Assembly (NCBI GenBank): GCA_964622425.1
Contig: CAZUQN010000003.1
Location: forward strand, 1,166 to 65,165
Origin: an uncultured Ruminococcus sp.
GTDB taxonomy: Bacteria > Bacillota > Clostridia > Oscillospirales > CAG-272
Direction: 5' to 3'
DNA length: 64,000 bases
The position numbers and the translations under genes are program-made. The first letter of the stretch is position 1; each line of letters opens with the position of its first letter. Below are positions 59,112 through 59,678 of the stretch, one piece after another. The notes beneath the pieces were generated by a model. That model made no database searches and was not told where the DNA came from. It was given only the letters and a program-made list of their open reading frames with translations.

Positions 59112-59678
59112 CCTTCTCCAGTGGGAGAAGGGGGACCATTTATGGTGGATGAGGTGTCTTTGTACATCACCCTCATCAAGCACATTTATAACGCTAAATG
59201 TCGCTTGTTATTTACATTTTCATCTTAAACGAGGATAAACCTGAATAATTGAGTCCAAGATTTTCTAGTATATCTTCAACCACAAATCTAAACTGATTTC
59301 TCACGGTATCATTTGAATATCTCAAAACTTTAATGCCCCATAAAGATAAATTGCTATCTCTTTTTTCATCTTCTTCTTTGTGCTCTCGAGATAGATGCTG
59401 CAATCCGTCCAACTCAATTACGATTTTCTTTTCTGCAATATAAAAATCAACAATGTAGTTCCCTATATTATGCTGTCGGTGGACGTTATACGGAAGCTTT
59501 TTTAAAAAATCGTACCACAAATGCTTTTCTTCAGGAGTCATATTTTTCCTGAGTTCCTGCGCATTTGCAACAAGCTTTTTATTGTATGGTATCATCCTTA
59601 CTCCTTACTTAGCCTTCTAGGGCAGGAGAGTAACGCCTCATCCACCGCAAGCGGTCCCCCTTCTCCCACCGGAGAAGG
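59112..59678. mobile_element. DUF559 gene bracketed by ~43-bp inverted two-hairpin repeats (candidate selfish cassette)
   Basis: Left: CCTTCTCCagtgGGAGAAGG GGGACCATttATGGTGGATGAGG (59112-59154). Right: the reverse-complement type CCTCATCCACCGCaaGCGGTCCCCCTTCTCCcaccGGAGAAGG (59636-59678). Confidence 0.4.
59212..59595 (-). CDS. DUF559 (Vsr/PD-(D/E)XK-like) endonuclease-domain protein
   Basis: 127 aa. ELRKNMTPEEKHLWYDFL, HNIGNYIVDFY and VIELDG motifs typical of DUF559. Confidence 0.85.
   Translation of the reverse strand: MIPYNKKLVANAQELRKNMTPEEKHLWYDFLKKLPYNVHRQHNIGNYIVDFYIAEKKIVIELDGLQHLSREHKEEDEKRDSNLSLWGIKVLRYSNDTVRNQFRFVVEDILENLGLNYSGLSSFKMKM

Follow-up and report, generated by a model that had tools for sequence, protein, structure and literature searches.

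DUF559 nuclease genes between inverted two-hairpin repeats: candidate compact selfish cassettes in gut Clostridia and other bacteria

We studied a 64,000-nucleotide stretch (the window) of contig CAZUQN010000003.1 from an uncultured Ruminococcus sp., in which a small gene of the DUF559 family lies between two inverted copies of a repeat unit that folds into two hairpins. Comparison with related loci showed that the gene and its flanking units, here called arms, travel together across species in a fixed orientation; that the stretch from arm to arm inserts as a block, with long target duplications varying from 8 to 98 nucleotides (nt); and that gene-less solo, doublet and tandem units exist, with differences from one close relative to another and a scattered presence in IMG/VR viral contigs. 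On balance, and with some reserve, we regard positions 59111-59679 as a compact selfish cassette of about 0.5 kb and positions 63112-63704 as a second, diverged copy. Our best reading of the whole system is an ancient selfish cassette whose nuclease would act on its own hairpin ends and which has derivatives like miniature inverted-repeat transposable elements (MITEs) or repetitive extragenic palindromes (REPs), a mechanism that we infer from the comparisons below.

Cassettes and repeat units in the window

DUF559 gene 1 (59212-59595, negative strand) encodes 127 amino acids (aa) and matches Pfam PF04480 with E = 2e-27. A repeat search of the window showed that its arms, at 59111-59157 (downstream) and 59633-59679 (upstream, an inverted copy of the former; both given on the positive strand), are 47 nt long and 87% complementary. 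The downstream arm consists of hairpin 1 (CCTTCTCC-AGTG-GGAGAAGG), GGGACC, hairpin 2 (ACCA-TTTA-TGGT) and a box, GGTGGATGAGG; the upstream arm, read in the direction of the gene, has CCTTCTCC-GGTG-GGAGAAGG, the linker GGGACC, hairpin 2 (ACCGC-TT-GCGGT) and the same box. Folding as single-stranded DNA (ssDNA) gave two hairpins in each arm, at -10.0 and -9.7 kcal/mol (z = -3.4 and -3.5 relative to shuffled sequences). The upstream arm ends 37 nt before the ATG, with a separate AAGGAG Shine-Dalgarno sequence between them. An exact-sequence look-up of the gene 1 protein returned no record. A sequence-only reading of the window had described this 127-aa gene as bracketed by inverted two-hairpin units, and the open reading frame (ORF), the Pfam match, the arms and the folds all agree with it.

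Cassette 1 occupies a 1106-nt gap between the camelysin/TasA-like genes at 58299-59081 and 60188-60937. All other intergenic distances in this cluster are 12-77 nt, so that the gap is, as had been claimed, the sole large one in a packed cluster. No promoter-like site was found within 58900-60300. The rest of the gap (59680-60187) is rich in repeats, in line with the repeat debris that had been noticed up to 60187: the repeat search revealed a degenerate solo unit at 59891-59937, direct repeats at 59825-59843 and 59943-59961, and an inverted repeat at 59768-59781 and 59804-59817. A close relative, L001, keeps the general layout of this stretch with a different unit content. Terminator-like hairpins had also been proposed after TasA-like paralog 4. 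A hairpin adjoining the stop codon of that gene does exist, at 60149-60172, and is kept in L001 at 5307-5333, with changes on both sides of the stem; it is not a canonical terminator, because its T-run is on the positive strand, antisense to the operon.

L001 carries gene 1 at the same site with the same arms, and the insertion of cassette 1 at the TasA site is old. A relative with the gene at this site and no inverted repeats had been named as the finding that would speak for a vertically inherited housekeeping gene; in L001 the gene stands between its arms.

The window holds two cassettes, the second of which the sequence-only reading had missed. Gene 2 (63276-63653, negative strand; PF04480, 1.3e-27) encodes a 125-aa protein that is 46% identical to that of gene 1 by BLASTP. 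Its arms, the outer or downstream one at 63112-63157 and the upstream one at 63659-63704 (both on the positive strand), are 46 nt long and 91% complementary. The box of the upstream arm ends 7 nt before the ATG, so that its GAGG can serve as a ribosome-binding site. An extra unit (63203-63248, positive strand) lies between the gene 2 stop codon and the outer arm, in direct orientation relative to the upstream arm, and forms a gene-less inverted doublet with the unit at 63112-63157. L001 has no cassette 2 in the corresponding intergenic region.

Both products are predicted DUF559/Vsr-like PD-(D/E)XK nucleases. The two window proteins scored 95.7 and 96.3 bits with PF04480, against a cut-off of 20.6, and the gene 1 protein had a weaker Pfam match to REase_MTES_1575. 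A profile search of sequences in the Protein Data Bank found the Neisseria DUF559 protein 3HRL (1.8e-17) and the catalytic domain of the homing endonuclease I-Bth0305I, 3R3P (E = 4.8e-5). The AlphaFold model of gene 1 (predicted local distance difference test, pLDDT, 78.8) has the order of strands and helices of the restriction-endonuclease-like alpha/beta fold. Its top Foldseek matches were 3HRL and 3R3P (E = 4.3e-5), followed by Vsr (1CW0); a lower match was 9DOU, the restriction-like endonuclease region of an R2 retrotransposon protein (E = 0.018). Residues D50, E61, D63 and H67 were invariant in 12 homologues. The DUF559 family includes E. coli YcjD; matches to NCBIfam NF007294 scored below the equivalog cut-off, so the window proteins are not YcjD orthologues. 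DUF559 was the sole ORF of the cassettes, and the ORF list and Pfam gave no transposase or recombinase of the DDE, HUH, serine or tyrosine type. PADLOC yielded no full-length defence match, only short domain-level ones (DpdF, a methyl-directed restriction enzyme and a homing endonuclease model), and PHROGs likewise gave domain-level matches only, with "homing endonuclease" as the annotation. The family is large, with 37,398 clusters at 50% identity and E <=0.001 in a library of 1.84 billion proteins, and rare in phages, in which tblastn detected it in 38 of 50,697 records. A link to the ultra-small MPME elements of mycobacteriophages was considered and rejected, as this search gave no mycobacteriophage match.

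The repeat unit has a common architecture of about 45 nt: a G/C hairpin CCTTCYCC-N4-GGRGAAGG, a second hairpin, and the conserved box GGTGGATGAGG toward the gene. Two subtypes, A (CCTCATCCACC...GGTCCC) and B (CCTCATCCGTC...GCCACC), may both occur in one cassette. Hairpin 2 is hypervariable, with 156 distinct sequences in 214 units, and is still nearly always a hairpin of Watson-Crick pairs, with at least 4 bp in 206 of the units (mean -8.3 kcal/mol versus -2.75 in shuffles). G.T pairs make up only 1-2% of its stems on either strand, a scarcity that favours a structure read at the DNA level, or on either strand, over one read in RNA only. Hairpin 1 was ruled out as a terminator, as no T-run follows it. 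Rfam has no family for the unit at the gathering threshold (window, gap and three unit-rich viral loci), and a permissive search of the units gave chance-level matches only, with E up to 10. At 18820-18898 (negative strand), the window has a full-length match to the Gut-1 RNA (RF01706), at 50.4 bits versus a gathering score of 50.

Over the whole window, a 26-nt core pattern of the unit matched 3 times and a looser one 7 times, with 0 matches expected in each case (100 shuffles for the former), and a still looser unit scan gave 9 copies, all within the last 16 kb. Gene-less units are among those present. A MITE-like composite at 51168-51346 consists of a unit with a long insert in hairpin 2, a 37-nt spacer and an inverted unit (inverted repeat 51236-51251 / 51289-51304). 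A repeat-bearing stretch at 51465-51688 begins with a solo unit (51465-51509); the half-unit at 51579-51606 is 100% complementary to 51465-51492, and 51579-51688 forms a second gene-less doublet. Another half-unit (48010-48057, positive strand) has hairpin 2 and the box, with a left module GACCGAGCCGAAGCGAGACA instead of hairpin 1. An alternative module, GACCGAGCC(C)GNAGNCGAGACA(A), stands directly before GGGGGACC in place of hairpin 1 at 48010-48032 and 51555-51580 of the window, and also in loci L054 (about 2880-2900) and L266 (about 345-365); as genomes that are not related share this junction, the units appear modular. Directly downstream of a gene for a 1983-aa surface protein, a composite repeat (about 125 nt) occurs at 51260-51384 and 51595-51726; its copies are 340 nt apart and each ends in the terminator-like hairpin GAGCCTCGCATTTCTGCGAGGCTC.

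Association, insertion and persistence in Clostridia

A scan with one genome per species gave 80 loci with proteins 57-78% identical, nearly all from metagenome-assembled genomes of gut Clostridia/Oscillospiraceae. Within 200 nt of the gene there were 141 units in 60 kb, as compared with 34 units in the remaining 378 kb, i.e., a 26-fold higher density near the gene (Poisson p ~1e-59) over a background of about 0.09 units per kb. Of 70 upstream copies, 62 have the box toward the gene (R), as do 67 of 77 downstream copies (L). Units were present on both sides of 54 of 87 DUF559 genes and on at least one side of 76. In 32 loci the upstream box lies 6-9 nt from the ATG, and its GAGG is thus placed to act as a ribosome-binding site. 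The DUF559 gene is co-oriented with the upstream ORF in 62 of 73 loci, which, together with the lack of a promoter-like site around cassette 1, fits a dependence on host transcription. Assemblies break at the units: contig L263 stops within units, and many of the closest homologues listed come from contigs of less than 1 kb. The metagenome contig L218 has two DUF559 genes in opposite orientation within 700 nt (1242-1613, positive strand, and 1830-1967, negative strand).

Comparison of non-orthologous loci showed no similarity beyond the outer ends of hairpin 1, and at several of them direct duplications of target DNA abut the arms: 98 nt at L052 (100% identity), 60 nt at L046 (95%), 37 nt at L082 (89%), 31 nt at L066 (97%) and 17 nt at L019 (100%). 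A P-loop kinase site, which has the commonest orthologous insertion and is filled in many species, has a duplication of 8-10 nt. In a control, flanks paired across different loci matched over 10 nt at most. At the kinase site the cassette stands directly before the original stop codon, and the new stop overlaps the DUF559 ATG; a metagenome scan of this site found two filled sites and one empty orthologue, which at 72% identity was too diverged for exact junctions.

The 98-nt duplication gave the clearest view of an insertion. The duplicated segment in L052 starts at the ribosome-binding site and takes in the first 27 codons of the gene for a 539-aa secreted protein, so that the target gene stays intact. 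Loci L264 and L265, from two species (74% identity), have a single copy of the segment, no cassette and no unit, with upstream synteny kept, and L266, from a third species (77%), presents the filled state with junctions as in L052. The comparison of these empty and filled sites shows insertion into a naive site. The duplicates, located at 2823-2920 and 3440-3537 in L052 and at 57-154 and 939-1036 in L266, are 100% and 96.9% identical within the respective genomes and only 69% identical between species, and the DUF559 genes of L052 and L266 are 84% identical; either gene conversion homogenised the copies or this exact position was hit by insertion more than once. Ahead of the gene for the secreted protein, about 6-8 short boxes of the type AACATATCACG, with small palindromes between them, are conserved in three species (L052 2700-2820, L264 1290-1490 and L265 1370-1480); this may be a regulator-binding array. 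The earlier reading had proposed a comparison with strains lacking the insertion; none was found for the TasA site, and it was at the L052 site that clean empty sites and a long duplication could be set side by side.

Copies on one contig and differences between relatives are further signs of turnover. Two cassettes, L053 and L054, lie 20 kb apart on one contig with interiors 100% identical and different flanks; the outer part of one arm differs between them, and the left arm of L053 has been converted to match its own right arm. L001 has a solo unit that was inserted, with a 16-nt duplication, between gene 1 and its upstream arm; it also has three tandem units at a position where the window has a single one.

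Once inserted, the cassettes can be long-lived. One and the same insertion is kept at orthologous sites in at least 15 species with constant orientation. Values of dN/dS between DUF559 orthologues were 0.07-0.19, with dS up to 0.76, and 0.19 between gene 1 and its L001 orthologue; the nuclease gene is under purifying selection and is kept over the long term at orthologous sites. A decaying cassette was seen at L025 (3001-3375), in which the DUF559 orthologue has an in-frame stop (DFF*RLP) and the arms are intact.

Related loci in other phyla

The distant set consisted of 20 DUF559 loci from annotated plasmid and phage records, with proteins 30-45% identical to those of the window. In 13 of them the gene was flanked by inverted repeats well above shuffled controls, as the sequence-only reading had suggested for many phyla. 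The repeats measured 53, 56 and 23 nt in Deinococcus, 114 nt in Sinorhizobium meliloti pSymB, 66 nt in Novosphingobium and 40 nt, perfect, in Pseudanabaena; they were also present in Sphingomonas, Sphingobium and Azospirillum, in two faecal phage contigs, and in two Picosynechococcus records, one of them barely above the control. Their common design combines a G/C hairpin (type CCYCYCCC/GGGRGRGG) with a box rich in G. The upstream arm in Sphingomonas/Sphingobium reads hairpin 1-GGGGGACC-hairpin 2-GGTGGAGGGG, followed after about 12 nt by the ATG, which is the Clostridial architecture, and the arm in Novosphingobium corresponds to the type B unit of Clostridia. Across at least four other phyla, DUF559 genes stand between analogous arms.

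Two further features recur in these taxa. Repeat-derived peptides such as PLSEGDLGG, PPLIKGG and HPSSDEEGV were found in about half of 32 inspected family representatives with N-terminal extensions, in some at both protein ends; the suggestion that odd Pro/Gly-rich extensions derive from the repeats therefore stands, for C-terminal as well as N-terminal ones. The DUF559 gene also often lies inside operons, as in the TasA-like cluster of the window. It stands between transhydrogenase alpha (pntA) subunits on a Sphingomonas plasmid (L257) and between paaD and paaZ on a Deinococcus psychrotolerans plasmid (L256), co-oriented with the operon in both.

Readings of the cassette and what they mean

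The cassette is akin to a REPtron, to an insertion sequence (IS) with its MITEs and to a free-standing homing endonuclease gene, and has the defining enzyme class of none of these families. Like classical IS elements, it has terminal inverted repeats of about 45 nt and direct duplications, of 8-98 nt, in at least seven loci; like IS and MITEs, it comes as copies that would be autonomous and as shorter, presumably non-autonomous derivatives with common ends. The size of about 0.5 kb, the single ORF of about 125 aa, the hairpin ends and the co-orientation of isolated units in phage-like contigs recall IS200/IS605. In contrast to these elements, it has no DDE, HUH or serine/tyrosine recombinase, its ends are true inverted repeats, unlike those of IS200/IS605, and its duplications are far longer and more variable than those of classical IS. 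Restriction-modification genes offer a further parallel, in that "insertion with long target duplication", a process with no known mechanism, has been reported for them (PMC2853133): the inserted DNA also encodes nucleases without a recognisable transposase or integrase, has variable direct duplications of tens of bases, and is in some cases flanked by inverted repeats. It comprises, however, full restriction-modification systems with idiosyncratic repeats, whereas the cassette combines a single nuclease of 124 aa with one conserved family of hairpin repeats that also occurs without the gene.

If the cassette is selfish, its nuclease would recognise the box together with the hairpin, probably in an extruded or single-stranded state, given that G.T pairs are avoided in the stems on both strands. 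The nuclease might then nick or break the ends of the element or its targets, and host replication or repair would make new copies from these nicks or breaks. The long target duplications could stem from fill-in after widely staggered nicks, or from the copying of flanking DNA. Gene-less units would be non-autonomous derivatives moved in trans, as MITEs are by IS and REPINs by the REP-associated tyrosine transposases (RAYTs). The wider proposal that DUF559 cassettes are an unrecognised class of autonomous mobile element, spreading with gene-less units through bacterial and phage genomes by nick- or break-and-copy, is a tentative one.

Several observations weigh against the selfish cassette. 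The link between nuclease and repeat is a predicted one, and PD-(D/E)XK enzymes hydrolyse DNA and cannot alone rejoin it, so that any mobility would need host functions. Most cassettes are at orthologous sites across species, which indicates vertical inheritance with little movement; because many loci are orthologous, the counts over the 80 loci are not fully independent. A clear target duplication was seen in only about 7 of 54 two-armed cassettes. For cassette 1 itself no target duplication was detectable and no empty-site comparator was found; a 3.5-kb Logan contig identical to the TasA genes of the window has both ends inside units and hence shows no empty site there. The arms of one cassette are often of different subtypes, and hairpin 2 was identical in both arms in a minority of cassettes (6 of 52, null mean 1.45). 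Within the distant set, flanking repeats were absent from the E. coli, Neisseria and Photobacterium loci, and from those of Shinella, one Synechocystis plasmid, one Sphingomonas locus and a soil phage. The unit pattern, moreover, occurs in at least 120 IMG/VR contigs (1.1 Mb; L085-L204), and none of those listed encodes a DUF559 homologue. The association is in this respect one-sided, and the unit, being common without the gene, could be an independent entity. In the multi-unit IMG/VR loci among the matches listed, the units were co-oriented in 26 of 26, which suggests strand-specific insertion or selection in phage-like genomes; relative to the genes of the viral contigs, by crude ORF calling, 32 cases were same/same versus 15 opposite/opposite.

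The alternative that best withstands these data, although we consider it unlikely, is a domesticated system resembling a REPtron, in which DUF559 would be a vertically kept host gene that disperses or manages the units while itself immobile, the flanking units being its substrate. As in the REP/RAYT system, a single small nuclease gene lies between inverted structured repeats that are also dispersed without the gene, singly or as inverted doublets, the bases next to the hairpins are conserved and the stems variable, and the gene persists vertically over long times, here at orthologous sites in at least 15 species under purifying selection. The units far outnumber the genes and occur without them, and close relatives with the gene at one and the same place differ in the units that they carry. 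Against this, the cassette block itself was inserted, with long target duplications, into unit-free sites, and identical duplicates occur on one contig. Unit density is also low in the sampled DNA, at about 0.09 per kb away from genes, whereas RAYT hosts typically have hundreds of REPs; the enzyme is by its Pfam match and by the fold search a PD-(D/E)XK, Vsr-like protein and not an HUH/Y1 transposase as RAYT is; and the cassette system is found in Firmicutes, Deinococcota, Cyanobacteria and Alphaproteobacteria.

Less probable still is a free-standing homing endonuclease gene that cleaves a palindromic unit or doublet and is placed by repair in the middle of its recognition site, between inverted half-sites. 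The Vsr-like (EDxHD) homing endonucleases, such as I-Bth0305I, are small selfish nuclease genes whose catalytic domain is homologous to that of the cassette protein in sequence and fold (TM score ~0.6-0.8), and PHROGs and PADLOC gave domain-level homing endonuclease matches. Gene-less R..L doublets exist as possible targets, and the L053/L054 pair, with identical interiors and one divergent outer arm, looks as if a conversion tract had ended inside the arm. The empty sites L264 and L265 are, however, free of units, so that insertion was not into a pre-existing repeat, although this evidence comes from one informative site. Homing does not create target duplications of 17-98 nt, and the arms, at about 45 nt, are on the short side for recombinational repair. 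I-Bth0305I is, in addition, intron-encoded, has an extra DNA-binding region and homes to alleles without inverted repeats or target duplication, whereas the cassette is free-standing, has structured terminal repeats and was inserted into a site without its own repeat. The earlier description of a minimal selfish or homing cassette therefore holds in its first part, given the discrete insertion with duplications of 17-98 nt, the empty sites, the identical copies and the absence of cassette 2 from L001; strict homing is not supported, as the recovered empty site holds no pre-existing unit.

We find it quite improbable that gene and unit have no functional link, the units being either an independent intergenic repeat (mRNA-stabilising, terminator-like or REP-like) that gathers around a small, horizontally mobile gene of the Vsr type with a repair or restriction-like role, or elements that act at the RNA level only, e.g., by arms that would pair in the transcript and so mask the ribosome-binding site. 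Units without DUF559 are found in many contigs, where they keep one orientation, and the upstream box doubles as a Shine-Dalgarno sequence, with the downstream box as its complement. The E. coli Vsr protein and Caulobacter VsrA belong to the same fold superfamily and act with a cytosine methyltransferase on T:G mismatches, and the E. coli and Neisseria DUF559 genes, unlike the cassettes, are without flanking repeats. VsrA, a methylation-linked Vsr-like nuclease with a DUF559 domain, causes DNA damage in vivo, with a DNA-damage response once the cytosine methyltransferase is deleted (PMC12907096); DUF559 family members can thus be active nucleases in vivo. The absence of a link is difficult to reconcile with the 26-fold enrichment of units near the gene and with an architecture and orientation kept between proteins 30-46% identical and across phyla. 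Stems nearly free of G.U/G.T pairs on either strand would be unusual for an RNA-only structure, which the lack of a T-run after hairpin 1 and of any Rfam family match also disfavours.

Finally, an invertible switch, in which the inverted repeats would mediate programmed inversion and on/off phase variation of the nuclease gene, is very improbable and was rejected: DUF559 and "endonuclease domain-containing" coding sequences are enriched among predicted inversion targets (PMC9881135) and the L053 left arm has been converted to match its right arm, but no recombinase is encoded and the gene keeps its orientation relative to its flanks in at least 15 species sharing the downstream terminator, and between the window and L001.

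In the literature searched, coverage of which was incomplete so that absence is no proof, no description of the association between DUF559 and a repeat was found, in agreement with the earlier statement that it is uncharacterised. One paper on predicted programmed inversions lists, without comment, "DUF559 domain-containing protein" (odds ratio 14.3) and "endonuclease domain-containing protein" (odds ratio 9.6; PMC9881135) as enriched among the coding sequences that overlap predicted invertible segments bounded by inverted repeats. Genes that regularly lie between inverted repeats should show such an enrichment, and the link proposed here would explain that of the DUF559 genes.

The tie of DUF559 to a conserved DNA structure gives a large, old family of unknown function a concrete and testable substrate, and suggests that many of its members may be selfish cassettes rather than repair enzymes. 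The same link would explain the widespread palindromic repeats in gut Clostridia and their phages, as well as the recurrent annotation artefacts in the form of Pro/Gly-rich extensions and the assembly breaks. If the nuclease drives the process, the cassettes would offer a naturally occurring example of insertion with long target duplication. Should they indeed represent a new class of mobile element, a large share of the G/C-rich palindromic repeats and spurious Pro/Gly-rich ORFs would be explained in many phyla, and selfish mobility would be the ancestral role of a family of more than 37,000 clusters.

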